DNA from: Patescibacteria group bacterium
GTDB taxonomy: Bacteria > Patescibacteriota > Patescibacteriia > UBA1558 > S5-K13
Length of the DNA stretch: 64,000 nt
Reading direction: 5' to 3'
NCBI GenBank assembly: GCA_028692545.1
Contig: JAQUXC010000002.1
Span: 28,082-92,081, forward strand
In this document: in pieces, positions 19,956 to 50,985 of the stretch
Layout: the number at the start of each line of letters is the position of its first letter
Numbering within the stretch: position 1 is the first letter of the stretch
Notes under the pieces: generated by a model
What the model was told of the DNA's origin: nothing
Databases searched by the model: none
What the model saw: the letters and a program-made list of their open reading frames with translations, nothing else
Made by a program: the position numbers and the translations under genes

Positions 19956-22900
19956 ATGAAAATAGAATTAGACAAAGCATACGAAGCGAAAAAATTTGAA
20001 GACGATATATATCAAGAGTGGCTAAACTCTGGATATTTTAATCCTGACAATTTACAAAAAAGAAATAATAAAAGTTTTTCTATAGTCTTACCTCCTCCAA
20101 ATGTCACTGGACAACTTCATATTGGTCATGCAGCAATGCTTGCATATCAAGATTTAATAGTTAGATATCATAGAATGAGAGGTGATAAAACTCTATGGCT
20201 TCCAGGTATGGATCACGCTGCTATTGCAACACAAACTGTGGTTGATAAAAAATTAAAAGCAAAAGGAATAGATAGGCATGAAATTGGAAGAGAAAAATTT
20301 TTGGAAGAAGTAGATAATTTCGTACAAGAATCAAAAACAGTTATAAAAAATCAACTCCAAAAAATGGGCTCATCTCTAGATTGGTCAAGAGAGAGATATA
20401 CAATGGACAAAGGAATTACCAAAGAAGTTCAACATGTTTTTAGAAAATTGTATGAAGATGGACTTATATATAGAGGCGAAAGAGTTATAAATTGGTGCCC
20501 ACATTGTAAATCCACTTTGGCCGATGATGAAGTTGAGCATCGCGAACAAAATACAAAGTTATATTATTTCAAATATTCTAAAGATTTTCCTATCACAATA
20601 GCAACATCCCGCCCTGAGACAAAACTTGGTGATACTGCAGTTGCAGTAAATCCAAAAGATGAAAGGTACAAAAAATATATCGGAAAAACATTTGATATAA
20701 CTTTTTGTGGCATAAAATTACATATAAAAATTATTGCTGATAGAAATGTAGATATGAATTTTGGAACAGGTGCACTTGGTGTAACGCCAGCTCACTCAGC
20801 AATAGATGCAGATCTTGCAAAAGAACATAATTTAAAAATAATAAAAGTTATAGACAAAGATGGAAAGATTTTACCAGGATTTGGAAAATTCTCTGGACTC
20901 AATACAAAAGAAGCAAGTAAAAAAATCATAGAAGAATTAAAGAAAAATAAGCTCATAGAAAAAATTGATGAATATAATAATAATTTATCAATATGTTATA
21001 GATGTGATACTCCAATAGAGCCAATGCCACTTGAGCAATGGTTTGTAAATGTAAACAAAAAAATAAAAAGTAAAAACAATAAAACTCTCAAACAATTATC
21101 AACAGAGGTTGTAAAAAATGGATCTATAAAAATTATTCCGCAGAGGTTTGATAAAGTATATTTTGAATGGATGAATAATTTGAAAGATTGGTGTATTTCA
21201 AGGCAACTTTGGTTTGGACACAGAATGCCTGTTTGGTACAAAGACAAAGAAATTTGGGTACCAAAAACTATTACAGAATTATATGTGATGAGACATGGGG
21301 CGACAGACTGGAATAAAGAAGGAAAAATCCAAGGAAAAACCGATGTTCCAATTGATGAAGACAATGTAAAAAATATAGAAAAAATTGCAGAAAATTTAAA
21401 GAATGAAAAATTTGATATTATAATTTCTTCAACACAAAAAAGAGCAAGACAAACAGCAGAAATAATAAATCAAAAATTAAATATTACTCTTCTTACAAAT
21501 GAATTACTAGTAGAAAGAGATTATGCGGGATTTGAAGGAAAAGAAGCAAAGAAAGTTGCTAAAGAATATCCAGAATATAAAAATAATAAAATTAAATTTG
21601 ATATTCCTGGAGAAGAAGAGAGCTACGATGATATGAAAAAACGTGTAGAAAAATTTTTAGAATACATTAATAAAAATTATAGCAACAAAAAAATACTTAT
21701 AATAACTCACAATGCTGTTATAAGAACTTTTAATATAATTATCAATGAATTAAATGATGAAGAAGCTTCAAAATATAAATTACAACATGAAAAAATAGAA
21801 AAATATCAAATACTTGATGGAAAATATAAAATAAAAGACTGGAAACAAGACCCTGATACATTGGATACTTGGTTTTCTTCTGCACTTTGGACATTTACAA
21901 CACTTGGTGGACCAAACAAAACAAAAGATTTGAAAGATTTTCACCCCACATCTGTAATGGAAACGGGTTATGATATATTATTTTTCTGGGTTGCAAGAAT
22001 GATACTTCTTACAACATATATATTAGATGATATTCCATTTCACACTGTATATCTTCATGGGCTCGTAAGAGACAAAAATGGCAAAAAAATGTCCAAATCA
22101 CTTGGAAATGGAATAGATCCGCTTGATGTAATAAAAAAATATGGAGCAGATGCCTTAAGACTTTCTATGATAATAGGATCAACGCCAGGAAATGATGTAA
22201 AATTGTATGATGAAAAAATATCTGGTTATAGAAATTTTATAAATAAATTATGGAATATTTCAAGATATATTCTTACAAATATAGAAAATCCTAAACTAAT
22301 AGAAAAAAAACCAGAGGCTATTACACTTTCTGATAAATGGATACTAGATGAACTTGATAAAATAATTTACAATACAACTTTAAAAATAGAAAACTTTCAA
22401 TTCTCCCCTGCTGGAGAAGATTTATATGAATTTACTTGGAACAAATTAGCTGATTGGTATATTGAAATTTCAAAATTAGAAAAATCCGCCGACGCTAAAG
22501 CTATGGCGGACAAGGATGAAATATTATTATATATACTTCAAAATTTGTTAAAATTATGGCATCCATTTACTCCATATATAACAGAAGTAATATGGAAAAA
22601 TTTTAGCAATGAATTACTCTTGATACAAAAATGGCCTGAAGTAAAAATCAAGCTAAGCTCGAAGAAATACAAAGAAAACAAAAAGGTAAAGGATGAATTT
22701 TTTATAATACAAAATATAATAACTGAAATAAGAAAATTCAAAAATATAAATAAAATAGACCCGGCAAAAATTATCAATTGTCATATAGAATCAAAAAAAT
22801 ATGAAAAATTGATAAAAGAAAATTCAAAAATCATAGAAATCCTATCTAGAATAAAATTACAAAATAATTTGTACAAAGAAAAAATCCATATTCCAAATAT

Positions 22901-23093
22901 AGATATATATATTGAAATAATTATAGATAAAAAAGAAACCGAAAAACAGATTATCGAACTAGAAAAATATATAAATACTCTTGAAACAAAATTAGCAAAT
23001 AAACAATTCATAGACAATGCGCCAAATGAAATTGTAGAAGCTGAAAAAAAGAAATTAAGAGATGCAAAAGAATTATTAAATAAATTAAAATAA
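19956..23093 (+). CDS. valS: Valine--tRNA ligase carrying an inserted histidine-phosphatase (PGAM-like) domain
   Basis: PPPNVTGQLHIGHA (HIGH), KMSKS, WCISRQLWFGHRMP and DTLDTWFSS motifs. A roughly 190-aa insert with RHGATDWN and IITHNAVIR lies between the last two. Confidence 0.9.
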   Translation: MKIELDKAYEAKKFEDDIYQEWLNSGYFNPDNLQKRNNKSFSIVLPPPNVTGQLHIGHAAMLAYQDLIVRYHRMRGDKTLWLPGMDHAAIATQTVVDKKLKAKGIDRHEIGREKFLEEVDNFVQESKTVIKNQLQKMGSSLDWSRERYTMDKGITKEVQHVFRKLYEDGLIYRGERVINWCPHCKSTLADDEVEHREQNTKLYYFKYSKDFPITIATSRPETKLGDTAVAVNPKDERYKKYIGKTFDITFCGIKLHIKIIADRNVDMNFGTGALGVTPAHSAIDADLAKEHNLKIIKVIDKDGKILPGFGKFSGLNTKEASKKIIEELKKNKLIEKIDEYNNNLSICYRCDTPIEPMPLEQWFVNVNKKIKSKNNKTLKQLSTEVVKNGSIKIIPQRFDKVYFEWMNNLKDWCISRQLWFGHRMPVWYKDKEIWVPKTITELYVMRHGATDWNKEGKIQGKTDVPIDEDNVKNIEKIAENLKNEKFDIIISSTQKRARQTAEIINQKLNITLLTNELLVERDYAGFEGKEAKKVAKEYPEYKNNKIKFDIPGEEESYDDMKKRVEKFLEYINKNYSNKKILIITHNAVIRTFNIIINELNDEEASKYKLQHEKIEKYQILDGKYKIKDWKQDPDTLDTWFSSALWTFTTLGGPNKTKDLKDFHPTSVMETGYDILFFWVARMILLTTYILDDIPFHTVYLHGLVRDKNGKKMSKSLGNGIDPLDVIKKYGADALRLSMIIGSTPGNDVKLYDEKISGYRNFINKLWNISRYILTNIENPKLIEKKPEAITLSDKWILDELDKIIYNTTLKIENFQFSPAGEDLYEFTWNKLADWYIEISKLEKSADAKAMADKDEILLYILQNLLKLWHPFTPYITEVIWKNFSNELLLIQKWPEVKIKLSSKKYKENKKVKDEFFIIQNIITEIRKFKNINKIDPAKIINCHIESKKYEKLIKENSKIIEILSRIKLQNNLYKEKIHIPNIDIYIEIIIDKKETEKQIIELEKYINTLETKLANKQFIDNAPNEIVEAEKKKLRDAKELLNKLK

Positions 23094-28057: not shown

Positions 28058-28627
28058 ATGTTAAGTATTAGATTCAAAAGAGTTGGAAGAAAAAAAGCTC
28101 CATCCTATAGAATAGTTGTAATGGAAAAACAAAAAGATCCATGGTCAAACTATATAGAAAAGCTAGGATTTTTCGATCCAAAAACCAAAGAAACAGTATT
28201 AAAAGAAGACAGAATAAAATATTGGCTTAGTGTTGGAGCACAAGCTTCAAACACAGTAAGTAATTTACTTCTAAAAAATGGTATTATCGAAGATATAAAG
28301 AAAAAAGCTGTAAAAATCAGCAAAAAAAGACAAACAAAAATAGGTGATAAGAAAAAACTAGAAGAAGAGACAAAAGCCAAAAAAGAAGCAAAAGCTATAG
28401 CAGATGAAGAAGCAAGAGTTATGAAAGAAGCAGAAGAAGCAAAAACTAAAGAAGTTGTAGTAGAAGAAACACCCACTCCTGAAGAACCAAAAACTGAAAC
28501 TACAGAATCTACCCCTACTGAAGTTGCAGAAAATAAAGAAGCTCCTATTACTGAAAAACCTGTAGAAGAAATTCCAACTAAAGATTCTGTTGAAACATCA
28601 AAAATAGTAGAAGAAAAAACTGAATAA
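28058..28627 (+). CDS. rpsP: 30S ribosomal protein S16 with a Lys/Glu-rich C-terminal extension
   Basis: IRFKRVGRKKAPSYRIVV N-terminus. Confidence 0.85.
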   Translation: MLSIRFKRVGRKKAPSYRIVVMEKQKDPWSNYIEKLGFFDPKTKETVLKEDRIKYWLSVGAQASNTVSNLLLKNGIIEDIKKKAVKISKKRQTKIGDKKKLEEETKAKKEAKAIADEEARVMKEAEEAKTKEVVVEETPTPEEPKTETTESTPTEVAENKEAPITEKPVEEIPTKDSVETSKIVEEKTE

Positions 28628-28667: not shown

Positions 28668-28742
28668 GCGAGTATCGTATAGTGGCTATTATACGGCCTT
28701 GCCAAGGCTGAGAGACGGGTCCGATTCCCGTTACTCGCTCCA
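28668..28742 (+). tRNA. tRNA-Gly (anticodon GCC); integration target
   Basis: Acceptor GCGAGTA/TACTCGC, anticodon arm CGGCC-TTGCCAA-GGCTG, T-arm ACGGG-TCCGATT-CCCGT, and CCA. Confidence 0.8.
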
Positions 28743-28773
28743 TTAAAGACGCCTATTTATGGGTCTTTTTTGT

Positions 28774-29853
28774 TTATGGCAAACAAATTGTGGCCATATT
28801 GTGGCCAATATTATATTTCTGTTCACTTAAAGACCTTATTGCATCAACTGTCGCAAGTGGTCCAAGATGAGAATATCTCATTGTAGTTTTAACATCAGAA
28901 TGCCCCAATAACTCTTTTACAACAAGTATTGAAATTCCTCTTTGAACTAAATGAGAAGCAAATGTATGTCTTAAATTATGCCATCCTATTTTTCTTAAAC
29001 CACTTAACTGACAGGCACTATGAAGTTTGTTTAGTGCCAAATTTGAAGTATAAGATTTTCCATTAACATTTGGGAATACTAAACCTGTTTTTATAGATCT
29101 GGCTTCAAGCATATCAAGAAGTTGTGGTGCAAGAGGGATATATCTAATCTTATTACTTTTTGTGCTCCCAATTAATCCTCTGGTAATAGAACGACGAATA
29201 ATAATTTTCTTATTCTTAAGGTCAACATCACTCCAATCAAGGACTGCCAATTCCCCAAATCTTAAACCAGTCATATAAACCATCAGAATCATTTCTCCTA
29301 TTATTTCATTTGCGCCAATTAGAAGTGAAGATAACTCTTCATTACTTAGAAAATCAAATTTCTGTGGTGGAACATTTAATAACCTCATTTTTGGAACTTG
29401 ATTTACACACTCCCATTCTTGAGCCGTCTTAAGACATTTACTTAGAATTGTTAAAATATTGTTGATTGTCTTTGGACTTAATCCTTCCTCAAGTTTCTTT
29501 GCTTTGAACTCCTCTATCTTCAGCACACTTATCTTGTTTAGTGGGAGTTTACCAAAAAAAGGAATTAAATGTTTATCAAGAATATACTTTTTTCCTACTT
29601 GCTCAGATGGTTTATTATTATTCATTACATAGGTTTTATGCCATTTATATGAAAACTCTTCAAATAATGGAATCTTAATCTCTTTTACTTTTTCAACTAT
29701 CTCTTCACCACGAGCTAATTTCTGTCTAATCAAAGACTCGTAAACTTTGGCCCCAGCAAAGCTATTTTCAGGACTAGGCATTCTATATCTTATTCTATTG
29801 AATCTAAAACCTATCCAATATTTTTTTCCTCTCTTAAAAATACTCATATTCAT
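28774..29853 (-). CDS. int: Tyrosine site-specific integrase (phage integrase family)
   Basis: C-terminal catalytic box WHNLRHTFAS...LLGHSDVKTTMRYSHL (R, HxxR, Y). It sits adjacent to the tRNA. Confidence 0.9.
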   Translation of the reverse strand: MNMSIFKRGKKYWIGFRFNRIRYRMPSPENSFAGAKVYESLIRQKLARGEEIVEKVKEIKIPLFEEFSYKWHKTYVMNNNKPSEQVGKKYILDKHLIPFFGKLPLNKISVLKIEEFKAKKLEEGLSPKTINNILTILSKCLKTAQEWECVNQVPKMRLLNVPPQKFDFLSNEELSSLLIGANEIIGEMILMVYMTGLRFGELAVLDWSDVDLKNKKIIIRRSITRGLIGSTKSNKIRYIPLAPQLLDMLEARSIKTGLVFPNVNGKSYTSNLALNKLHSACQLSGLRKIGWHNLRHTFASHLVQRGISILVVKELLGHSDVKTTMRYSHLGPLATVDAIRSLSEQKYNIGHNMATICLP

Positions 29854-30077
29854 TTTGAGATTACGTTGACTTGGACATTGTCTAAATAAGCCAGAACATC
29901 TTCTTTCTTAAATCTTAAGCTACCACCAATTTTGTAAAACTTGATTACTCTTTGATCTACCAACCTATAAACAGTTGGAGTAGAAATACTAAAAAATTTA
30001 GCAAGATCAATTGGTGTTAAGAATGGTTTATTTATAATTTTGTCCAAATCTTCAATCATTTTATTGTTAAGGAACAA
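29850..30077 (-). CDS. xis: Excisionase/MerR-type HTH DNA-binding protein
   Basis: 75 aa; the ISTPTVYRLV helix-turn-helix overlaps the integrase start. Confidence 0.65.
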   Translation of the reverse strand: MFLNNKMIEDLDKIINKPFLTPIDLAKFFSISTPTVYRLVDQRVIKFYKIGGSLRFKKEDVLAYLDNVQVNVISK

Positions 30078-32786: not shown

Positions 32787-34886
32787 ATGAAAAAAACATT
32801 TTTACTCCTTATAGTGTTTTTATGTCTAGGAGCAATACCTTATAATTTTAGTAATGCTGTTACACAAAGTCAAATTAGTTCTACGGTTCAAATTGTATGT
32901 CCAGATAATTATGGAAATTGGTTCAGTGGATCGGGAACGATAATAGACCAGAAAGGAATTATTTTAACCAATAAGCACGTTGTTACAGATGAATATGGTG
33001 GAATAATAGATACTTGTTTTATAGGATTTGTTGAATCAATAAGTAAAGAACCAAATTTTGGAACAGAAATAAACCCTAATTTAGCTGAAGTAAAATATCA
33101 TACCACTTCTCAGGATATGGATGTAGCACTTCTATACCTAGACAATCCTACTAATAAAACATATACATATGTTGATATTTGGAATTCTAATTCTGATAAT
33201 TTAAAATTTGGAGATAAGATTGAAGCTGTTGGGTTTCCTGGAATTGGTGGATCCACTATAACATACACATCTGGTGATTTTAGTGGTTTTGGTAGTAACT
33301 CTGATGGAACACAAAATTATATAAAAACAACAACTCCACTAGAACATGGAAATTCAGGAGGATCTGCATATAATTCTACGGAACAATTTATTGGTATTCC
33401 AACGATGGTTGTAGCTGGCACATTGAATTCATTAAGTTATTTGTTATCTGTAAATAGTATTAAAAATTGGTTATCTGAAATTTTAGGGAGTCAATATCAA
33501 CAAGGTATTGTAGAACAGGAACCCATTATAGAAAGACCGACTACTAGCATTCAAAATGATATCACTCCACCGAATTTTAACTTGTCAGGTCAGCTCTGTT
33601 ATTGGGTCTATGAAGATAATTATGATTTTATAGGAGGAAGATGTTTTCCAAAAAATTTAGGAAAATTAGAACCATATAATCATATACAATTTATATTATT
33701 TACTGAAGATCTATATAAAATTGATCCTAATGGGTTAGCAAAGACATATTATTATTTTGATACAGTTCCACATAGTAAAATTGATAATAATGTTATTAAA
33801 TATGTGCCAAAGTATTTGAATTCAGCACAGACTACACTTGCTCTAACGGAAATTATTGATATAGATAGCCCTGGTAAATACTACCTTACCTTTTTTGGGG
33901 AAGATAATCTTGGTAACGTTTCTAGTCCGTATATTTATGAATACGAATACCAACCAGAAATTTTTAAAACGATAAAAAATTTATATTTTTACAAAGATTC
34001 TAATAAAAAACAGCCATTAAAAGCTTACAATGTAGATTTTGATAAAATTGACCAAGGATGGATGTGGGAACCTTTAGAGTGCTACACTAGATTAGATAAT
34101 ATTACTGTAGATTGGAAATATCCAGTTGTTTATGAAGGGTATTCAACAAAGAAAATAAATAGTTTTACAGATTTTGGGGGTACTAAATTTACTGGGAATT
34201 TACAAAACTCTAACCAATATACTATTACAAATATATCTAATGGAAAAATAGTTCAATGGAAAGAGAATCACTATCAAAACGGATTGTCACCCGAAGAACA
34301 AATTTACCAGAAAAGTTTGTCTCCTCATAACAATATATATTATGAATTTTATATGAATCCAACAAATAGTAATATTGTTGAATTAGAACATAAACATAGA
34401 TTTTTAAAATTGATATATAATGAAAATCTTGAACAAGACTTATTATGTAATGATAACTTAGTTTTTGCAGAGACAAATGATTATCCAATTATTGTAGACC
34501 AGGGATTATCTAATCGTTTAAAAGGTAAGTTACTTCTTCAGGTAAACCAAGGAGGTAGAGTTTGGTATGTAAATCCAGATGATGGTAAAAGATTTGAAGT
34601 AACCTTTGCTAATGCATTACCTCTATTTGAAAAATTTGCTCTTGGAATATCTAATAAAGATTTAGAAAAAATTTCATTACACACTAATAATTGGACATCT
34701 GCTACAGGGAATAGATTGAAAGGAAAATTACTTTTACAGGTAGAAGATGGCGGTAGAATTTGGTATGTAGATTTTGATGGCAAAAGATGGGAAGTAACTT
34801 GGGCTAATTTAATGACTTTATTTGAAAGTTTGTCATTAGGTATTACAAACGATAATCTAAATAAAATAGAAATTGGGAGTTTATAA
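32787..34886 (+). CDS. Secreted trypsin-like (S1/chymotrypsin fold) serine protease with a C-terminal tandem GKLLLQV-GGRIWYV repeat domain
   Basis: Signal peptide. Catalytic triad context TNKHVV (His), DVALLYLD (Asp) and GNSGGSAY (Ser). Two roughly 55-aa C-terminal repeats end in KIEIGSL. Confidence 0.8.
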   Translation: MKKTFLLLIVFLCLGAIPYNFSNAVTQSQISSTVQIVCPDNYGNWFSGSGTIIDQKGIILTNKHVVTDEYGGIIDTCFIGFVESISKEPNFGTEINPNLAEVKYHTTSQDMDVALLYLDNPTNKTYTYVDIWNSNSDNLKFGDKIEAVGFPGIGGSTITYTSGDFSGFGSNSDGTQNYIKTTTPLEHGNSGGSAYNSTEQFIGIPTMVVAGTLNSLSYLLSVNSIKNWLSEILGSQYQQGIVEQEPIIERPTTSIQNDITPPNFNLSGQLCYWVYEDNYDFIGGRCFPKNLGKLEPYNHIQFILFTEDLYKIDPNGLAKTYYYFDTVPHSKIDNNVIKYVPKYLNSAQTTLALTEIIDIDSPGKYYLTFFGEDNLGNVSSPYIYEYEYQPEIFKTIKNLYFYKDSNKKQPLKAYNVDFDKIDQGWMWEPLECYTRLDNITVDWKYPVVYEGYSTKKINSFTDFGGTKFTGNLQNSNQYTITNISNGKIVQWKENHYQNGLSPEEQIYQKSLSPHNNIYYEFYMNPTNSNIVELEHKHRFLKLIYNENLEQDLLCNDNLVFAETNDYPIIVDQGLSNRLKGKLLLQVNQGGRVWYVNPDDGKRFEVTFANALPLFEKFALGISNKDLEKISLHTNNWTSATGNRLKGKLLLQVEDGGRIWYVDFDGKRWEVTWANLMTLFESLSLGITNDNLNKIEIGSL

Positions 34887-34903
34887 ATAATAATTTTAAA
34901 TAT

Positions 34904-36388
34904 ATGAAAAAAATTTATATTCCTTTATTAATCTTATCATTTGTATTTATCATATTACCACAAAAAATAAAAGCATCTGGATGTATGGAATATGGAATGT
35001 GGGCTTATGAAGATTTTACTGGTTATTGTAAGTGTATGAGTGGGTATGTATGGGGTAAATTTATGGGTCAAGATTATTGTATTTCTGGTGGTTCATATTG
35101 TTATGATAAATATGGTTATGGGTCACAATATGATTCAATCTCGAAAAGCTGTGAATGTAAAAATGGATATGTATGGGATGATGGTTTATTTGGTAATTCA
35201 ACTTGTGTATCTTGTTCTAGTAAATACGGTTTTGGTGCGACTTCAGATTATCTAGGTAGTGGCTGTAAATGTATGAGTGGATATGTATGGGGTAAAAATT
35301 TCCTCGGGGAAGATTATTGTGTTTCTGGGGATTCAAAATGTTCTAGCCTTTATGGTTACGGTTCAGAATATAATTCTATATCTCAAAAATGTGAATGCAA
35401 AAGTGGATATGTTTGGGACACTAATGCATCTAACGATTTAATATGCATATCTTGTTCTAGTAAATACGGTTTTGGGTCAGAATATGATTCACTCTCAAAA
35501 AGTTGTGAATGCAAAAGTGGATATGAATTATCCTATAAAACTTTTGGTAGCGGATTAGAATGTATTAGTTGCTCTACTAAATATGGTTCTCATTCCTCTT
35601 ATGACTATATTACTGAAAAATGTAAGTGTAATGACGGATATACATTAGATTCAGATAATAAATGTGTTGAAAAACAAAACAACGTTTATTTTATATTAAA
35701 AGAACTTGATGAAAATAATGATAAAGCAATTATAGAAAATGAATATACAAGCTCACGATATTTAGTAGAGTATGGAATTGGATGTCTTTTAATAGACAAT
35801 TATGTAGACGAAAAAATAGTTATAAATCTAGGAACAGATTTTAATATTGATGTATGGGATAAAATAGTTTTACAAAATGATAATGATACTTGTTCTATTT
35901 TAGATGTTTCTAATGTTAATTATAACTATAGTTTAAAAGAACAAGATAGTAGTGATGATAGTATATTATATACAATTCCACAAAAAATAGAGCCTAATAC
36001 TAAAATAGACAAAACATTATCCAAAAAAATGAGTGGGAAGTTACTTTTACAAGTTGAGGAAGGTGGTAGAATTTGGTATGTGGATACAAAAGAAAATAAA
36101 AGATATGAAGTTATTTTTGCGAATGCCTTGGCTTTATTTGAAAAATTATCCATTGGAATAACGAATGCAGATCTTGATAAAATATCAGACAAAAAATCTA
36201 CGACATTAGGTAATTCAAATAAAGGAAAATTATTTTTACAAGTAGAAGAAGGTGGGAGGATATGGTATATAGATACAAATGGATTAAAACACGAAGTAAC
36301 ATTTGCAAATTTAATGAATTTATTCAAAAGCCTATCTCTTGGTATTACAAATGAAAATCTTGATAAAATAGAAATTGGAAGTTTATAA
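34904..36388 (+). CDS. Secreted Cys-rich repeat protein sharing the same C-terminal tandem repeat domain
   Basis: Six or seven CKCMSGYVWG/CECKSGYVWD modules, then two GKLLLQVEEGGRIWYVD...LSLGITN..LDKIEIGSL repeats. The DNA paralogy with 34500-34880 is visible. Confidence 0.8.
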   Translation: MKKIYIPLLILSFVFIILPQKIKASGCMEYGMWAYEDFTGYCKCMSGYVWGKFMGQDYCISGGSYCYDKYGYGSQYDSISKSCECKNGYVWDDGLFGNSTCVSCSSKYGFGATSDYLGSGCKCMSGYVWGKNFLGEDYCVSGDSKCSSLYGYGSEYNSISQKCECKSGYVWDTNASNDLICISCSSKYGFGSEYDSLSKSCECKSGYELSYKTFGSGLECISCSTKYGSHSSYDYITEKCKCNDGYTLDSDNKCVEKQNNVYFILKELDENNDKAIIENEYTSSRYLVEYGIGCLLIDNYVDEKIVINLGTDFNIDVWDKIVLQNDNDTCSILDVSNVNYNYSLKEQDSSDDSILYTIPQKIEPNTKIDKTLSKKMSGKLLLQVEEGGRIWYVDTKENKRYEVIFANALALFEKLSIGITNADLDKISDKKSTTLGNSNKGKLFLQVEEGGRIWYIDTNGLKHEVTFANLMNLFKSLSLGITNENLDKIEIGSL

Positions 36389-36401
36389 ATATATTAAATA
36401 T

Positions 36402-38711: not shown

Positions 38712-39257
38712 ATGGACGAAATAAATAAGTACAAAGACTCTATAGAATATATAGAGAATGAATTTCAAAAAATAATAAAGGAGAATCCATTAAATTTTGA
38801 TAAGGAATATTTATCCCAAATAAGGTTTAAAGTTACTAGTTTTAAAAAAGGTGATGATCAATCTTATGATGTAAATTACGAAATAAAAGGCTTTGACTAT
38901 GGAGATGATTATAGTAATGGTTTAATTTTAAGTTCTAGAGATGGACTTTCAATCGAAGAAGAAATTGCAAAATCAATCTATGACGATATAGTAATGGGTA
39001 CAGACTTAATGAGGAAAGATCCTAAAGTAAGAGAATGCATAGATAGGGCAGAAGAAGAAGCAGAAGAAATACTTGAAAACAAAAAGAAGAAAGATAAAAA
39101 GAAATTTTGGGGTTGGGCTAGACCAGAAATAGGAAAAGGTCATCATTTAGGAGATTGTCATATCTTTTGGGAAGAAAAGAAAAGAATCTTAAAAGAAAAA
39201 TATAATATAGATTGGAAAACTCCTGCGGAGATAAACCCAAGTGCTAAATTTGATTGA
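38712..39257 (+). CDS. Hypothetical charged protein
   Basis: 181-aa ORF. Confidence 0.45.
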   Translation: MDEINKYKDSIEYIENEFQKIIKENPLNFDKEYLSQIRFKVTSFKKGDDQSYDVNYEIKGFDYGDDYSNGLILSSRDGLSIEEEIAKSIYDDIVMGTDLMRKDPKVRECIDRAEEEAEEILENKKKKDKKKFWGWARPEIGKGHHLGDCHIFWEEKKRILKEKYNIDWKTPAEINPSAKFD

Positions 39258-39375
39258 TATAATTAAATCAATCTTATAAACTCATTAAAAAGTGATTTAA
39301 AAAAATAAAGATTCTAATATAAAAATATATGAGAGACAAGATTTTAGATAGAATTAAGAAATCTAATAGGTTTCT

Positions 39376-40530
39376 TTGGCTTGGAAACTATTGTATAATA
39401 TTTATATGGATAAAGTTAAATCAATAAATAAAGAAAATTTAGAAATTGCAAGAAATAATGTCGGTCTGAGTACTATGTCGGCAACAAGAAAAATTTCAAA
39501 ATCAAAAATTGATTTAGTTTTTGAATGGGAAAATGGAACATCACTGCCAACGTGGAATCAAATAACTAGATTAGCAAAAATATATGATATTCCTGAGGTA
39601 CTCTTTTTTTCTAGAGAGTCTATTAAGAAGAACAAAACAATTCCAGACTATAGGATTGGACAAGATTCATATAATGATGAAAAAATACAGAAACTCATTA
39701 ATATTGTTATTAGAAGACAACGATGGTTAAAACAAAATATTAAATATAACCTAAAAAAAAATGTTTTACAGGGTAGTGGTAAAGAGATTCAAAATCCAGA
39801 TCAATTAGCTTTATTAATAAAAGAAAAACTAAATATTGATTCTTATGAAATAAAAAATATTTCTGGAGTAAGCTCTCGCAAAAAAGTATTGGATTATTTA
39901 ATAAGAAAAGCAGAGGATTGTGGAATATTTATTGGAAAAACCATACATTACCATAGAATAAAAGTAGACGATATGAGAGGCCTTTATATTTCTGATGATT
40001 ATTGTCCTTATATTATTCTTAATAGAAGAGATGCTCTTTCTGCACAGATATTTTCGCTTATACACGAGTTAGCTCATTTGTTTAGAAAAACTGACTCAAT
40101 ATCAAATAGCTTAGAGTTTAGACATTTAAATAAAAACATAAACTACGAGGAAATATTTTGTAATAAAGTTGCCGCTGAATTGTTATTGCCTACAAAAGAT
40201 CTTAAAAAAACATTTTATGATATATCCGACATTAATAATATGGCAGAAATTTACAAAGTTAGTAGATTAATGATTTTTTATAGACTTAAAGATCTAAATA
40301 AAATTGATAAAAATGATATAGATAATTTAGAAGAAAAAATACGTAAAGAAACTGATGAAGACGTTATACATAAAAATAATAAAAAAAATACTGGCGGAAG
40401 TTATGTTAATAATATGAGAGATTCAAATGGAAAACTTTTTAATAACATTATTTTAGAACTTTATTTTGATAAAAAAATAAATTACGTAGAGGCATCTAAT
40501 TTACTCAAATTCTCTGTTGAAAGTCTATGA
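39376..40530 (+). CDS. XRE-family HTH fused to an ImmA/IrrE (COG2856) zinc metallopeptidase
   Basis: N-terminal HTH LEIARNNVGLSTMSATRKISKSKIDLVFEWENG and C-terminal HEXXH (HELAHLF). Confidence 0.75.
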   Translation: MAWKLLYNIYMDKVKSINKENLEIARNNVGLSTMSATRKISKSKIDLVFEWENGTSLPTWNQITRLAKIYDIPEVLFFSRESIKKNKTIPDYRIGQDSYNDEKIQKLINIVIRRQRWLKQNIKYNLKKNVLQGSGKEIQNPDQLALLIKEKLNIDSYEIKNISGVSSRKKVLDYLIRKAEDCGIFIGKTIHYHRIKVDDMRGLYISDDYCPYIILNRRDALSAQIFSLIHELAHLFRKTDSISNSLEFRHLNKNINYEEIFCNKVAAELLLPTKDLKKTFYDISDINNMAEIYKVSRLMIFYRLKDLNKIDKNDIDNLEEKIRKETDEDVIHKNNKKNTGGSYVNNMRDSNGKLFNNIILELYFDKKINYVEASNLLKFSVESL

Positions 40531-41015
40531 TAAATAATTTAACAAAAATAAAATACTTAGTTGATACAAATGTTTTAATAGAGCTTTCTCTCTGGAAGCC
40601 TATTGCTCTAAATTTAAACAAAGATTTTTGGTATAGACTCTCAGATGCTTTAAAGAATGATAAATGGGTACTTCTCGATGTTGTCGTTTGGGAGGTGCGT
40701 TATGATAAAGACTTAAAAAAATGGCTCTCTGAACAAAAAAATAAAGGGTTGGTTAAAAAAATTAATGATAATAATAAAAATCGTGCTGTTGAAATCAATA
40801 ATCAATACAAAATAATTGATGACATTACTGGCAAATCAACGGTAGACACTTATTTGTTAGCTTATGCAGAAGCCGAAAATTTAGGTATTTTTTCAAGAGA
40901 AAGCTCTAGAATTAATTCTAATCAATTATACAAAATTCCAGATATATGTAATATTTTAAATATCAATAAAACTAGAAGCCCTAAGGCTTTTTTAAAAGAA
41001 ATAGGATTTAATTAA
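40527..41015 (+). CDS. DUF4411-like PIN-fold protein; candidate toxin partner of the HTH-ImmA protein
   Basis: 4-nt overlap with the upstream gene. N-terminal YLVDTNVLIE acidic PIN-like motif. Size about 160 aa. Confidence 0.5.
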   Translation: MINNLTKIKYLVDTNVLIELSLWKPIALNLNKDFWYRLSDALKNDKWVLLDVVVWEVRYDKDLKKWLSEQKNKGLVKKINDNNKNRAVEINNQYKIIDDITGKSTVDTYLLAYAEAENLGIFSRESSRINSNQLYKIPDICNILNINKTRSPKAFLKEIGFN

Positions 41016-41075
41016 TAAATAGTCATAATTTTTTAGATACATATAAATTCTTTTTCTTTTTTATTGATTTATTTT

Positions 41076-41120
41076 AGCAATTCCCTACAATCACAGTTCT
41101 AACGTCCTCCACTAAGGAGT
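41076..41120 (+). repeat. Copy 1 of a roughly 40-bp repeat, (agcaattccc)tacaatcacagYYctaacRtcc...aaggag
   Basis: Copies 2 and 3 lie at 44171-44208 and 45443-45480. Each precedes a higher-GC gene or region. Confidence 0.6.
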
Positions 41121-41225
41121 ATATAATAGTCTTAAATGACTATTTTTGTTTATTATTATATTTGACATAAACTAAACATTATTGTAATGTGTAAACAAAT
41201 TTAACATTCTAATCATCAGGAGGAA

Positions 41226-42935
41226 ATGATGAAAAAGCTTCTTATTGTGGCCATTTTAATGGCTTTTTGCCTAGTTTTAATAGCACAAGCACCTGATACT
41301 CTTTGGACAAGGACCTTTGGCGGTCCAAACAATGAGTGTATGGAAAATATTAAAGCTACCAGTGATGGGGGTTGCATAATGGTTGGATCAACCAATTCTT
41401 ATAGGAGTGGTGGTCAAGATGCATACATAATCAAAATTGATATTTATGGAAATTTACAATGGAGTAGAACTTTTGGCGGTAGTCAACAAGACATTGCTTA
41501 TTGTGTTGATGAAACACCAACTGGTTATTGCATAACTGGATTTACAAGGTCTTATGATAGTCCAGACAATACCAATCTTTGGCTTTTTAAAGTTGATACA
41601 GCCGGAAGTTATCAATGGATGAGAACTTACGGTGGCAGTCAAGATGATGTCGGCGTATCTTTGCAATATACCACAGACAACGGATATATTATTACTGGTT
41701 ATATTCGTTCAAATAACGAATTATCAGGTGATCCATCCGGCGACATATGGCTTATTAAAACGAACTGGTTTGGTGAAAGAGAATGGCACAGGCGTTTTGT
41801 TTTTGATGATTGTTGGGATGTCGGAAGATCTGTTACTCAAACATCTGACGGAGGCTATGCAATAGCCGGAAAACAAAACAATAAAGCCTGCTTGATTAAA
41901 ACTGATTCTAATGGTTCTTTACAGTGGACAAGAGATTTTCCTGGTTATCCAGATTGCTATTCCATGCAACAGATTTCTGATGGTGGTTATATCTTATGCG
42001 GTGCTACCACTAACATATCTGGCACTTGGGATTTCTATTTACTCAAAACTGACTCAGATGGAAATTTACAATGGAGTAGAAATTTTGGTGGTACTCAAGA
42101 AGATTATGGTCGTTCTGTAGCCCAAACATCAGATGGTGGATATGTAATATTTGGAACGACAAACTCTTTTGGTTTAGGAAATTATGATACTTGGGTAATC
42201 AAAACCGATGCTAATGGAAATGAACAATGGAATAAAACTATTGGCACCACTGGAGATAATCAAGGTTATTCAATAGCACAAACATTGGATGACGGATATG
42301 TAATGGCCGGATATTCAGATGAACAAGCATATGCAATTCGTCTCAGAGGTAGACTCGTATTATTTAATGGAACCCCAACATCTGGATATATTCCACTAAC
42401 GGTTACTTTTTCTGATCAATCAATAATTCAAAATTTAGTAACTTCCTGGCAGTGGACATTTGGTGACGGTCAAACCTCATTAGAACAAAATCCAATCCAT
42501 ACCTATACGCAAGCTGGGCAGTATTCCGTGAAATTAAAAATCATTGATTCGAGCGGTGTTGCTGATTCGCTTATCAAAACCAATTACATCACAGTCCTGG
42601 AAGTGCCACCTGCTCCACCTGAGAACTTAACAATTACAATTTCAGGTCGCAATGCAATTTTGAATTGGGAACCAGTTACTACAACAATCTTCAATAACCC
42701 AATAACTATTACTGGTTACGTAATATACTTCAGTGAAATTCCTGATACAAACTTTTGGTATCTCGGATGCACCGAAGCCATAACCTACACACATTATCGC
42801 GTGACTCAATATGCCAGCGGTATGTTCTACAGAGTTGTTGCTGTCACAGATGATTGGAATCGAATAAGAAGCATAACACAAAGAAATCCTCATATTCAAC
42901 TTGGGCAACTAAATGCCTTGTTGAAAAAAGAGTGA
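41226..42935 (+). CDS. Secreted beta-propeller-repeat (SBBP-like) protein with a PKD domain and a C-terminal Ig/FN3-like region
   Basis: Signal peptide. At least eight repeats of TFGG(S/T)QxDxG.S...DGGY...G.T.S. PKD motif WQWTFGDGQTS...HTY. Strong AGGAGG RBS. GC is visibly higher than in the neighbours. Confidence 0.75.
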   Translation: MMKKLLIVAILMAFCLVLIAQAPDTLWTRTFGGPNNECMENIKATSDGGCIMVGSTNSYRSGGQDAYIIKIDIYGNLQWSRTFGGSQQDIAYCVDETPTGYCITGFTRSYDSPDNTNLWLFKVDTAGSYQWMRTYGGSQDDVGVSLQYTTDNGYIITGYIRSNNELSGDPSGDIWLIKTNWFGEREWHRRFVFDDCWDVGRSVTQTSDGGYAIAGKQNNKACLIKTDSNGSLQWTRDFPGYPDCYSMQQISDGGYILCGATTNISGTWDFYLLKTDSDGNLQWSRNFGGTQEDYGRSVAQTSDGGYVIFGTTNSFGLGNYDTWVIKTDANGNEQWNKTIGTTGDNQGYSIAQTLDDGYVMAGYSDEQAYAIRLRGRLVLFNGTPTSGYIPLTVTFSDQSIIQNLVTSWQWTFGDGQTSLEQNPIHTYTQAGQYSVKLKIIDSSGVADSLIKTNYITVLEVPPAPPENLTITISGRNAILNWEPVTTTIFNNPITITGYVIYFSEIPDTNFWYLGCTEAITYTHYRVTQYASGMFYRVVAVTDDWNRIRSITQRNPHIQLGQLNALLKKE

Positions 42936-43174
42936 TAAACAATTTCAAAATCAATAAAAGAAGCCTTGGGATAATATCTCGAGGCTTCTCTATTTTTTTG
43001 CATTTCTACCAATATTGTTGTGGCCATATTGTGGCCATATTGTGTCCAAGAAATGATTATATGTAATGAAGTTAATAGGAATTGATGGCATTTGATAATC
43101 AATATTATTCAGTATTAATGGGCTTTTATTCACTTTACTCAATGTTTATCAAATGTTTGTAAAAACTGCTTTCT

Positions 43175-43203
43175 CGGGTCCGATTCCCGTTACTCGCTCC
43201 ATT
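43175..43203 (+). repeat. attR: a 29-bp direct repeat of the tRNA-Gly 3' end
   Basis: Identical to 28716-28744. Confidence 0.8.
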
Positions 43204-44126: not shown

Positions 44127-44366
44127 GACATGAAATACTTTATTATTTTTATAGGATAATTATAAATTACTCACAATCACAGCTCTAACATCCTCTACCA
44201 AGGAGCTCCATAAAAAAGTCCTTTATTTAAAGGGTTTTTTGTTATACCCGTAAATAGAATTGAACTACTATTGACAAATATAAAAATTTATTTTTATATT
44301 TGACTTAATTTTACCATATTGATACCATTATATGTTAAAAAATAAATAAAATATTAGGAGGACAAC

Positions 44367-45086: not shown

Positions 45087-45665
45087 TAGAATATATTAGG
45101 CTCTGTGCAACGATAGCACAGAGCCTTTTAATTATACGTTAAAAATCAAAAATTTTACCTATAAAAATAATATATTTTATAAAAATCATTTTGGAATAAA
45201 AATATTATTAAAATTATGGCACCAAAAGATGAATTTGATAAGAAAAAACCACTAAAAAATTCTCCTAATTTTTTATCATATATTTGGATATATAAGTTTG
45301 GGAATAGCCATTTATTTTATTCTTTGTTTTGTATTGCATTGATGCTGGACAAGCTTGATAGTGTTATAGTGAAGTAGTAATTTTACTATCAATAAAAGGT
45401 GACTTTAAAGTCTTCCCCTTTTCTCTTTTTGATAAAATTTTCTAGCAATTCCCTACAATCACAGTCCTAACGTCCATAACCAATGAGCTCAATCGAGCTT
45501 AACTCGACCAACAAAAAAATCCATTTTTATAGGCTTCATATCCGGTCGTATAACTGGATTTTTGTTATACCACTAAATTAAAATGTATGAGATTTAACAT
45601 CTTTACAACCAAAACCACTATTAACATGATGTTGATGGTGATTTATTCGCGAACTCGTTTTATAC

Positions 45666-48313: not shown

Positions 48314-49645
48314 TTACAAACTATTAATTATTTCTTTTAAATTTTTCATTTTTAGAGAATTAAAATCTTCTTCTGTAATAGAAGACGATGCATACAAAGC
48401 ATTTTCTGATTTACTATCATATTTCTGATATTTTCTTGGATAATTTGCTTCCAAGTCACCATTTGGCAATACAAAAATTCTATATTTTTTTAATTCTTTT
48501 ATAAAATTATCACCTGATACATTTTTCAATTTCAAATCAATACGATTTAGTAAGTCTCTCAAATAATTACCTTGTAACATATCTCTATCAAAAATCATAA
48601 CATAAGGAATATCAAAAATATTCAAAACTTCAGCATACACAACAGCATTTCCTTTTCCATATGTTTGAATTACTTTTATATCTTTTTCACCCATATAAAA
48701 ATTATTTATCAAAGATGTAAACAACAACTTGTCTGATACACCTTCTACAAGTACAACTTCATCAGAGAAAAACATTTCTAAATTATCCGCATTTAATTCT
48801 TTTATTAGTCTATCTAAATTATAATTTTTGTTTTTTATTGTAAGAACACTTGTAATATTTTCTTTTTTCACAACTTTTATAAGTTGAGGTAAGGAAACTG
48901 GAGTTATAAATAAAGGAGAATGTGTAGTAAATAAAATTTGACCAGAATTGCTATTTTGCATTGCCCACAACAATTTTCTTATCATAGCAGGATGCAAATG
49001 ATTTTCTGGTTCATCTATCATTATAATATTATATTCTGGATGATAAATATATAAAAGTATAGTAAATACCCTACTAAAACCACTTCCAAGCCAATCAATG
49101 GTAGCATCTCTATCCCCTTCTTTTATACCTTTGTGTTCATAATTTATATCCAATGCATTTTTTGTAGTAGATATTTTTGGAAAGTGCTTTTTTAAATTAT
49201 ACTGAAACTCATAAAAATTTTGTTTGTATTTAAAAATATTTTTAAAATCTTCATTTATACAATCAAGATCCAAAAATACATTTTCATTTAATCTTTTTAT
49301 TTTTGAAGATAGATAATTAGATATTTTTTCATCATATTCAATGTCTTTTTTTTTAAATGACAATATTCTTTTTTGATTTTTTAAAATCAGATTTGCCCTA
49401 TCACTTGGAAATAAAAATTCTTTCACCTCAAATTCTGTAAATTCAATATTTAAAATAATATTTGATTTATCATAAAATAGAGATGTATTATCTTTTGTTG
49501 GGTCAATACAAAGCTCTATTGCATCTAAAATATTTGATTTACCAGAGTTATTTTGTCCAATAAAAGTATTCATCAAATTCAAATCCAAATCTATAGGATT
49601 TTTTATACTTTTATAAAGATTAATTTTTATTTTATCTAAAAACAT
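48314..49645 (-). CDS. OLD-family ATPase-Toprim nuclease (class 1, stand-alone)
   Basis: Walker A GQNNSGKSN, ABC-type IMIDEPENHLHP and a C-terminal Toprim VLVEGVSDKLLF. There is no adjacent UvrD/helicase gene. Confidence 0.75.
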   Translation of the reverse strand: MFLDKIKINLYKSIKNPIDLDLNLMNTFIGQNNSGKSNILDAIELCIDPTKDNTSLFYDKSNIILNIEFTEFEVKEFLFPSDRANLILKNQKRILSFKKKDIEYDEKISNYLSSKIKRLNENVFLDLDCINEDFKNIFKYKQNFYEFQYNLKKHFPKISTTKNALDINYEHKGIKEGDRDATIDWLGSGFSRVFTILLYIYHPEYNIIMIDEPENHLHPAMIRKLLWAMQNSNSGQILFTTHSPLFITPVSLPQLIKVVKKENITSVLTIKNKNYNLDRLIKELNADNLEMFFSDEVVLVEGVSDKLLFTSLINNFYMGEKDIKVIQTYGKGNAVVYAEVLNIFDIPYVMIFDRDMLQGNYLRDLLNRIDLKLKNVSGDNFIKELKKYRIFVLPNGDLEANYPRKYQKYDSKSENALYASSSITEEDFNSLKMKNLKEIINSL

Positions 49646-49647
49646 AT

Positions 49648-50985
49648 TTATAACAAATTTACATCATCAATCTCATCTATTTTATTGTTTAACACAATAT
49701 TTTCTATATGATACGTACCCAGCTTTGGTGCATTCATAAATCCCTCCATAGCTGCCTCAGCCATCCAACCAGAATCAATCCAATCAAAAAGCCACTCATT
49801 TACATATTTTGGATTTTTACTATCAACCCCTGCACCAATAGAAAGTAACCATCTTCTATTATAATTTTCTTGGGATCCAAGTGGTTCAGACATTATAATT
49901 GGAATTCCAAGTCCCGCATAAAAACTAAGCTCAGATGGTTTTGTCCATAATATATCTGTGGTTTTCAATTGTTCATTAAACATTTTGAAATATGTCATCT
50001 TGTCCTCTGAATATAAAATTTTTACATTTTTGGAATTATCTATCTTATTATTCTTCAAATATTTTTCATAGTACAAATAAACATCATTTCTATTACCAGC
50101 AACTAATATAAGTCTAAGCTTTCCTTTTTTGATATGATCTCTTAGGCTTTCCAAAATTGTAACTCCTAAATCACGCTGAGCACCAGCACCACCAACAGCA
50201 AACATTATTGTAAGTGGATGTGCATTTTTCTTTATTTGAGAAACTGGACACAGATATCCTTCTATAAATTTTGCATACTTTTTTCTATATATTCCCTTTG
50301 GATCCAAATTATATATTCTTGATTTCAAACTATTCTTTAATATATTCATATTCACTCCACCAATATTTTCTTTTGGCAAAGGAAAACCTGTCAAGAATAT
50401 ATTTTTTGAATTTACTCCATAAAGCATCAGCCTTTCTTTTACTCTTTTATTTGGGACTAAATATTTTATTCTACTTGTTTTTGGGTGATACGGAGCCCAA
50501 GCACGAGCAATATCTGCATCACAAACTATACAATATATTTCACCTTTATATCCATAATATTCTGCAAAATATGCTGGTACAAAAAAAGTAGTTACAAAGG
50601 GAAGCGGATTTTTATTTAATTCATCTATTAATTTTTTGCCAAGACCGTGTTTAACTTGATTGAAAAAATATTTTTGTTGATAAGAATTATTTGACAAATC
50701 TCTTTTTGGGTAATATGGATCTATTTTTTGCATATCATCCATTATGCCAAAAGCCAAATTTCCTAAAATTGGAAAATTCTTATACATTGATATTATTTCA
50801 TACCATTTTCTTCCACCTTGCCAAGATTTTTTTTCTTTTTTACTAATCCCTTGATAACTATTTGCATTTATTATTCCACCTTCAGAAACAGAAACAAATG
50901 GATAAGCAGCGCGCTGATGACCATATCCCATATCTACAGCTACTACATACATTTTGCTGTTTTTTAAAGATTTTTTATCCTTCAT
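49648..50985 (-). CDS. GT-B glycosyltransferase (MGDG-synthase/UgtP/MurG-like)
   Basis: N-terminal VVAVDMGYGHQRAA (G-x-GH motif) and a second-domain FAVGGAGAQ. Confidence 0.5.
   Translation of the reverse strand: MKDKKSLKNSKMYVVAVDMGYGHQRAAYPFVSVSEGGIINANSYQGISKKEKKSWQGGRKWYEIISMYKNFPILGNLAFGIMDDMQKIDPYYPKRDLSNNSYQQKYFFNQVKHGLGKKLIDELNKNPLPFVTTFFVPAYFAEYYGYKGEIYCIVCDADIARAWAPYHPKTSRIKYLVPNKRVKERLMLYGVNSKNIFLTGFPLPKENIGGVNMNILKNSLKSRIYNLDPKGIYRKKYAKFIEGYLCPVSQIKKNAHPLTIMFAVGGAGAQRDLGVTILESLRDHIKKGKLRLILVAGNRNDVYLYYEKYLKNNKIDNSKNVKILYSEDKMTYFKMFNEQLKTTDILWTKPSELSFYAGLGIPIIMSEPLGSQENYNRRWLLSIGAGVDSKNPKYVNEWLFDWIDSGWMAEAAMEGFMNAPKLGTYHIENIVLNNKIDEIDDVNLL

Follow-up and report, generated by a model that had tools for sequence, protein, structure and literature searches.

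Do two overlapping genes on a small integrated island of a Patescibacteria group bacterium form a toxin-antitoxin (TA) module, and to which known class would such a module belong? The pair lies in a window of 64,000 nucleotides, by which we mean the whole stretch of DNA analyzed (positions 28,082 to 92,081 of the forward strand of contig JAQUXC010000002.1, assembly GCA_028692545.1); all coordinates below count from its first letter. An earlier note on this DNA had described an Xre-type helix-turn-helix (HTH) domain fused to an ImmA/IrrE metallopeptidase (COG2856/M78) with the motif HELAHLF, followed by a DUF4411-like PIN protein. It had named two results as refuting: a downstream open reading frame (ORF) with no PIN or DUF4411 similarity, and an upstream one with no HEXXH metallopeptidase fold. 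Both the similarity and the fold were found. We conclude that the pair very probably functions as a TA-type module of the class known from VapBC52 of Mycobacterium tuberculosis, and that it is likely a self-contained type II TA or abortive-infection module that combines an HTH-ImmA/IrrE peptidase with a PIN toxin of the DUF4411 class.

Domains, conserved residues and distribution of the gene pair

The two co-directional ORFs, present in both the ORF list and the raw sequence, overlap by 4 nt (ATGA), as the earlier note had reported. ORF1 (39406..40530, +), the predicted antitoxin and sensor gene, encodes a protein of 374 aa that begins MDKVKSIN, and ORF2 (40527..41015, +), the predicted toxin gene, encodes 162 aa with the N-terminus MINNLTKIKYLVDTNVLIE. 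Both ORFs are intact, and the overlap of the toxin start with the antitoxin stop suggests translational coupling. For ORF1, the note had given a longer frame of 384 aa (39376..40530, from TTG), which includes the stretch ...IHELAHLF.... The gene stands and this start does not: translation almost certainly begins at ATG 39406, 10 codons 3' of TTG 39376, because this ATG is the start position of 27 aligned homologues, is also the start in the NCBI annotation, and lies 6 nt downstream of a TATAAT box.

In Pfam, both families that the note had singled out for checking scored above their cutoffs. ORF1 matched Peptidase_M78 at E=1.6e-14 (54.2 bits, cutoff 22), a match that spans model positions 8-123 of 123. 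ORF2 matched DUF4411 (PF14367) at E=2.6e-16 (60.3 bits, cutoff 23.5), and here positions 1-154 of the 159 in the model were covered. The N-terminal Xre-type HTH of ORF1 (about aa 1-68, +) was called from structure and profiles, because the Pfam HTH matches of the isolated N-terminus were below significance (HTH_31, 16 bits where the cutoff is 27, E=0.014; HTH_19, E=0.098). The ORF1 family profile matched the MBF1-type HTH 2mez (E=2.3e-4) and the HTH N-terminal domain (NTD) of VapB52, and a Foldseek search with the ORF1 model returned C.Csp231I and the P22 c2 and lambda-type repressors with a probability of 1.0. Some homologues of ORF1 also carry precomputed matches to PF01381, PF13560 or PF12844.

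The AlphaFold2 model of ORF1 (predicted local distance difference test, pLDDT, 82.6) consists of five N-terminal helices, a four-stranded peptidase core and a helical C-terminus. Foldseek matched the core to CapP (7t5t, E=5e-4), PprI (8sln and 8slm) and PrpR of M. tuberculosis (6cz6). The zinc site HELAH lies at aa 220-224 (nt 40063-40077, +), and the downstream zinc ligand is E249 (nt 40150-40152, +). To set these residues in a wider family, we drew on a library-wide profile search that returned 6,137 clusters at E<=1e-3 (387 at E<=1e-30), from which 144 representatives were compared. H220, E221, H224 and E249 are invariant in 27 homologues from the candidate phyla radiation (CPR) and occur in 143-144 of the 144 representatives; the zinc ligands align to H216, H220 and E245 of VapB52. 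C252 is likewise invariant in the CPR homologues, and the HExxH...E...C pattern is near-universal across the wider family. A low-confidence linker in the model (aa 77-87) coincides with an invariant P-D-Y-R motif (aa 80-83, nt 39643-39654, +) that aligns to D-F-R of VapB52. D81 and R83 are invariant in the CPR homologues; in the wider family the D is kept in 134 of 144 and the R in 142 of 144, with F, L or Y between them. ORF1 further has a helical C-terminal domain (about aa 326-374, +) with the invariant motif GG..NNM.DSNG. Among defence and phage models, ORF1 matched ten RmrA models of PADLOC at E<=7e-8 (best E=1.7e-14, over aa 17-322), the PADLOC capP model (E=1.7e-12) and phrog_2439 (E=1.4e-40).

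ORF2, which NCBI labels a DUF4411 family protein and for which NCBIfam returned nothing, falls just short of the Pfam PIN cutoff (23.5 bits against 23.6, E=9.2e-5). Its AlphaFold2 model (pLDDT 92.7) adopts the PIN alpha/beta/alpha fold, and the top 37 Foldseek matches in the PDB are all VapC/PIN toxins, with probabilities up to 1.0 and template-modelling scores of 0.4-0.66. It also matched phrog_11126 (E=1.8e-11). All 31 CPR homologues compared keep D13, E56, D107 and E125, which are shared with VapC52 (D13 aligns with VapC52 D6) and also conserved in relatives of 24-29% identity from Chloroflexota, Bacillota and Gaiellaceae (Actinomycetota). These four residues, plus D139, are the predicted catalytic residues, and with them the acidic site of a PIN nuclease is complete.

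For both proteins, the top sequence match in the PDB was the same entry, 9vzy. Chain A, titled 'HTH cro/C1-type domain-containing protein', matched ORF1 (E=2.2e-14), and chain D, titled 'DUF4411 family protein', matched ORF2 (E=2.4e-4). Profiles built from CPR homologues only, with the PDB sequence left out, raised these matches to E=1.2e-19 for the antitoxin and 1.9e-9 for the toxin, near full length. The entry (also 9vzz) is the VapBC52 complex of M. tuberculosis, formed by the antitoxin Rv2515c and the toxin Rv2514c (Singh et al., NAR 2026, PMC13273310). Foldseek did not return 9vzy from its PDB library, which ends in April 2026, before the apparent release of the entry; for this reason, the link to VapBC52 was drawn from the sequence-based PDB search.

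The pairing itself is conserved. Clustered at 90% identity, the toxin homologues, which are 47-71% identical to ORF2, form 60 groups and the antitoxin homologues more than 349, both overwhelmingly from Patescibacteria, and identities of 47-73% extend across many lineages of that group. A scan of species-representative genomes gave 56 loci, 37 of them from diverse Patescibacteria and the rest from distant Chloroflexota, Bacillota and Actinomycetota. The 37 CPR loci carry the labels Paceibacterota, Falkow-, Nomura-, Jorgensen-, Sung-, Kaiser-, Buchanan-, Morani- and Zambryskibacteria, 'Saccharibacteria'-labelled metagenome-assembled genomes (MAGs) and the cultured Minisyncoccus archaeiphilus. 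A DUF4411 gene lies directly downstream in 54 of the 56 genome loci, with the remaining two truncated where their contigs end (54/54 complete loci), and in three metagenome loci; the 4-nt overlap recurs in 29 of the 37 CPR loci. The surroundings of these pairs are unrelated. They include a conjugation-like DUF87/TrwB region, housekeeping genes, as in one pair (L005) between trehalose-synthesis and YchF/Sua5/LeuRS genes with no integrase nearby, and a defence-type island (L004) with OLD, SNF2 and RNase_H_2 genes, in which an OLD-like gene stands directly upstream of the pair.

The fixed DUF4411 linkage in unrelated contexts points to a self-contained, mobile two-gene module, and argues against partner swapping within the clade. 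Swapping was also considered for antitoxin homologues that lacked a listed toxin match and was rejected, as these still carry DUF4411 (3/3 loci checked). A third component, the upstream gene for a 181-aa protein (38712-39257), was likewise rejected: it gave no Pfam, PHROG or PADLOC match, and the upstream neighbours differ at the other loci.

Island setting, alternative explanations and proposed mechanism

The earlier note had placed the pair on a mobile element, and the boundaries of such an element could be located. A tRNA-Gly(GCC) gene (28668-28742) carries at its 3' end the left boundary attL (28716..28744, +), of which a perfect 29-nt copy (29/29), attR, lies at 43175..43203 (+) and forms the right boundary. 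Next to attL are a tyrosine integrase gene (28774-29853, -; Pfam Phage_integrase, E=1.5e-30; phrog_1, E=1.3e-63) and an excisionase-like HTH gene (29850-30077, -; excisionase and HTH PHROGs, E about 5e-6). By these landmarks, the tRNA-Gly repeat, the integrase and the Xis-like gene define a 14.46-kb integrated island, with the TA pair 2.2 kb inside attR. Both TA proteins match PHROG families, and relatives of them therefore occur in phage genomes.

Upstream of ORF1, the TATAAT -10 box (39394..39399, +) stands close to the ATG and no Shine-Dalgarno motif precedes the gene, which makes a leaderless transcript of the operon probable; AGGAGG does precede the neighbouring genes at 41226 and 44367. 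In 13 of 35 CPR loci, the end of a TATAAT lies 6-9 nt upstream of the start codon, with about 1.3 expected, a statistic inflated by the close kinship of some loci, and a Shine-Dalgarno-like motif was found in 1 of 35. An inverted repeat at 39356..39376, AAGAAATCTA-a-TAGGTTTCTT, with 10-nt arms that are 90% complementary and 1 nt apart, covers the -35 region and is a candidate operator of the operon. Downstream of the toxin gene, a weak AT-rich hairpin followed by a T-run (41125..41153, +), directly behind a copy of an intergenic repeat (41050-41119), was located by folding as a putative operon terminator of low confidence; a scan for consensus terminators found no convincing one after this gene.

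With this setting in view, the HTH-peptidase could be read as the island's own switch of the ImmR/ImmA or DdrO/IrrE type, silencing int/xis or cargo and inactivating itself on DNA damage so that the island is excised, with the DUF4411 protein as an accessory nuclease. Such a role would suit a protein whose M78 domain belongs to the ImmA/IrrE family, whose family profile weakly matches ImmR of ICEBs1 (7t8i, E=0.19), and whose gene is borne on an integrase-bearing island with a palindrome overlapping the promoter. However, 9.5 kb separate the pair from int/xis, which lie at the other end of the island, and the same two-gene unit is found where no integrase is close by, for example at L005 and in the defence island L004. 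The linkage to DUF4411 in every complete locus whatever the context is that of a self-contained module and argues against an island-specific ImmR/ImmA switch, and the homologous M. tuberculosis pair is a validated TA system. We consider an island switch quite improbable. It is also unlikely that the pair is purely an addiction module, which stabilizes the island by post-segregational killing and has no part in phage defence. The classic type II TA organization with overlapping genes, the place of the pair in the cargo of a small integrative island, and the chromosomal location and growth effect of the reference VapBC52 all fit post-segregational killing. Such killing needs a labile antitoxin, however, and ORF1 encodes a large, folded 374-aa sensor with a regulated protease; its relatives in RosmerTA, CapP/CBASS (cyclic-oligonucleotide-based antiphage signalling system) and VapBC52 are tied to phage defence, and addiction and defence roles are not mutually exclusive.

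The genomes of the CPR are reduced, which could favour a third explanation, that the pair has decayed into a non-functional remnant, or that the PIN-like protein is a housekeeping RNase without toxicity. This is highly improbable, given that both ORFs are intact, that the catalytic and metal-binding residues are all invariant across more than 50 loci, and that 47-73% identity over many Patescibacteria lineages in variable contexts indicates selection and mobility. The TA or abortive-infection module thus remains our preferred reading, and its link to defence is based on the PADLOC RmrA and capP matches, on the PHROG families of both proteins, and on the one homologous pair (L004) by OLD, SNF2 and RNase_H_2 genes.

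How such a module would work can be proposed by homology with VapBC52 (PMC13273310). VapC52 is a DUF4411 PIN toxin that cleaves tRNAs and is inactivated by mutation of D6, and VapB52 is a 43-kDa antitoxin, with one antitoxin bound to two toxins. The five-helix HTH NTD of VapB52 binds the outer side of the toxin dimer, its middle domain (MD) is an M78 peptidase/HTH, and its helical C-terminal domain (CTD) occludes the toxin active site. VapB52 cleaves itself at an 'FR' motif of the NTD-MD linker in a reaction that is triggered by single-stranded DNA (ssDNA) and depends on HExxH. The system is chromosomal and affects growth, and VapC52 protects M. smegmatis against phage D29 (all PMC13273310). 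By analogy, one ORF1 antitoxin would bind a dimer of the ORF2 toxin via its N-terminal HTH domain while its C-terminal helices occluded the nuclease site, and the HTH would probably also repress the operon's own promoter. A stress or infection signal, which is ssDNA for VapB52, CapP and PprI, would then activate the M78 peptidase, which would cut its own linker at the conserved D-Y-R and detach the toxin-binding NTD. The freed PIN nuclease could cleave tRNA or other RNA and arrest translation, and the outcome would be an aborted phage infection or the death of cells that lose the island. We see an even chance that the steps transfer jointly, from signal-induced self-cleavage at D-Y-R through release of a tRNA- or RNA-cleaving PIN protein to growth arrest, and from there to abortive infection or island stabilization.

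Several points weigh against this assignment. ORF2 shares only about 25% identity with VapC52, and the match of its single sequence is modest (E=2.4e-4). No PADLOC model, RmrT included, matched ORF2 at E<=0.1, and the RNA target of ORF2 cannot be predicted from its sequence. ORF1 scored 45 bits against the NCBIfam model spr1629-antitoxin, far under the cutoff of 335, and that name was not used. The operator and the leaderless start are read from sequence patterns only. Finally, the residue aligned to VapB52 C229 is S233 in ORF1, an invariant Ser throughout the CPR clade.

The last point bears on activation. In VapB52, C229 caps the zinc as a 'cysteine switch' (PMC13273310). Since this residue is an invariant Ser here, the published auto-inhibition and ssDNA activation of VapB52 are not transferable as they stand, and, judging from S233, ORF1 cannot use cysteine-switch gating. 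The Ser was considered as a special trait of the locus and rejected as such, being the family norm: it occupies this position in 122 of the 144 wider-family representatives, any Cys in the loop occurs in 6 of 144, and of the HTH-M78 antitoxins that are paired with DUF4411, about 85% have a conserved G-[IV]-S-N loop. In this comparison, VapB52 of M. tuberculosis, not ORF1, is the outlier at the switch position. A wider proposal, which we offer tentatively and think somewhat doubtful, is that the cysteine switch of VapB52 and CapP is a lineage-specific exception, that the family is gated otherwise, possibly by another signal, and that in Patescibacteria it constitutes a horizontally spreading, island-borne, leaderless abortive-infection system. 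If true, such a system would sit in organisms otherwise thought to be poor in defences. The missing zinc-capping Cys in most of the family points to a testable limit of the published activation model, which may not generalize.

Other features of the island and the window

Tandem TTGTGGCCATA repeats are present in both arms of the island (28784-28808 and 43014-43049), where the left set overlaps the integrase gene at its 3' end. In the excised circle the repeats would flank attP, and they are candidates for arm-type sites bound by the integrase. Secreted or membrane proteins make up most of the cargo, with a trypsin-like protease, Cys-rich EGF-like repeat proteins, DUF3761, FtsK-gamma and a PKD/beta-propeller protein. 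None of the ORFs scanned encoded a phage structural protein or a terminase, and a complete prophage was rejected. With its clean att sites, the island would be a tractable example of a CPR integrative element.

Within the cargo, the 699-aa trypsin-like protease and the 494-aa Cys-rich EGF-like repeat protein encoded next to it (32787-36388, +) share a duplicated C-terminal module of about 130 aa, which may be a common surface-anchoring or binding domain; the underlying DNA repeats (34495-34889 and 36006-36391) are 71-77% identical. The window has a G+C content of about 27%. The gene for the PKD/beta-propeller secreted protein at the right end of the island (41226-42935, +) has 34-37%, compared with about 26% in its surroundings, which suggests that this gene entered the island separately and more recently.

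An intergenic repeat of about 70 nt occurs at 41050-41119, 44136-44205 and 45418-45487 (+), each copy followed by a hairpin and a T-run, with the core TAGCAATTCCCTACAATCACAGTTCTAACGTCCTCCACyAAGGAG. One copy is within the island, directly after the toxin gene, and two are outside, which suggests that the island shares host-type intergenic sequence. The repeat had no Rfam match and may represent a small RNA, a leader or an element associated with terminators; beyond sub-threshold noise, Rfam returned tRNAs alone in the region.

Outside the island, at 48314-50985 (-), an OLD-family ATPase-TOPRIM protein matches the PADLOC models Old (E=1.7e-39), GajA (E=1e-29) and AriA (E=4e-27) and adjoins a 445-aa DUF6938 protein that has no defence-model match; the two are a possible second, atypical defence pair, 5 kb beyond attR. 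The valyl-tRNA synthetase (19956-23093, +; 1045 aa) contains a complete His_Phos_1 domain inserted in its catalytic domain (aa 442-630, E=4e-43), and the LeuRS at L005 carries a NUDIX insertion. Domain insertions in CPR aminoacyl-tRNA synthetases may merit a separate look.

Relation to known systems

The likeness to VapBC52 covers both partners, which are homologous, adjacent and in the same order, antitoxin then toxin. The antitoxins share one build, with a five-helix HTH NTD, a D-(F/Y)-R linker, an M78 domain with an HTH-like subdomain and a helical CTD; the HExxH+E zinc ligands and the PIN acidic residues match, including D13 as the equivalent of D6. The Foldseek neighbours of ORF1 are the families reported for VapB52, and the CapP entry is identical. 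The systems differ in that the host here is a Patescibacteria MAG, not an actinobacterium, that the pair here is cargo of a tRNA-Gly integrative island with a probably leaderless promoter, and that the M. tuberculosis pair is validated as a TA system while this one is a predicted one.

RosmerTA (RmrT/RmrA) is an anti-phage TA system in which an antitoxin with an HTH and an ImmA protease neutralizes a downstream toxin (Millman et al. 2022; Ernits et al. 2023, PMC10440598), and ImmA-protease antitoxins with PIN-like partners were already noted in the RosmerTA/NetFlax literature (PMC10440598). ORF1 matches many PADLOC RmrA models near end to end, with E about 1e-14. However, characterized RmrT toxins include membrane-depolarizing proteins, not PIN nucleases, and RmrA families swap partners, whereas the toxin here has no RmrT match and the clade is strictly paired with DUF4411. 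We considered filing the pair as RosmerTA and rejected it, because PADLOC matched RmrA for the antitoxin and nothing for the toxin.

CapP, a CBASS regulator, and IrrE/PprI of Deinococcus are M78 proteases activated by ssDNA and provide the best structural matches of the ORF1 peptidase core; 8sln, matched by ORF1, is PprI bound to ssDNA. In contrast to ORF1, their substrate is a separate repressor (CapH, DdrO), they contain a GAF-like domain, and they possess neither an N-terminal HTH fusion nor a toxin partner. ICEBs1 has separate repressor and protease genes, ImmR and ImmA, that stand beside int/xis and control excision, whereas one fused gene lies 9.5 kb away from them here.

The pairing of this type of antitoxin with DUF4411, as claimed for the locus, agrees with published work, and the conceptual addition is little: the architecture was predicted in 2017 and characterized in 2026, and both proteins were already assigned to families by NCBI. 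What the present analysis documents is a VapBC52-type module that is common in the Patescibacteria and strictly paired in many of their lineages, Minisyncoccus archaeiphilus among them; its presence on small integrative islands bears on phage resistance or the stabilization of mobile DNA in ultra-small episymbionts. A fusion of HTH and DUF955 upstream of DUF4411.1 had been predicted as a three-component TA system by Matelska, Steczkiewicz and Ginalski (NAR 2017, PMC5499597), whose DUF4411.1 catalogue, a prediction only, held 643 proteins, mostly from Bacteria and with no emphasis on the CPR. The gene arrangement here is exactly the one predicted there (PMC5499597), and to that catalogue our analysis adds a Patescibacteria clade that at 90% identity comprises 60 clusters of the toxin and more than 349 of the antitoxin.

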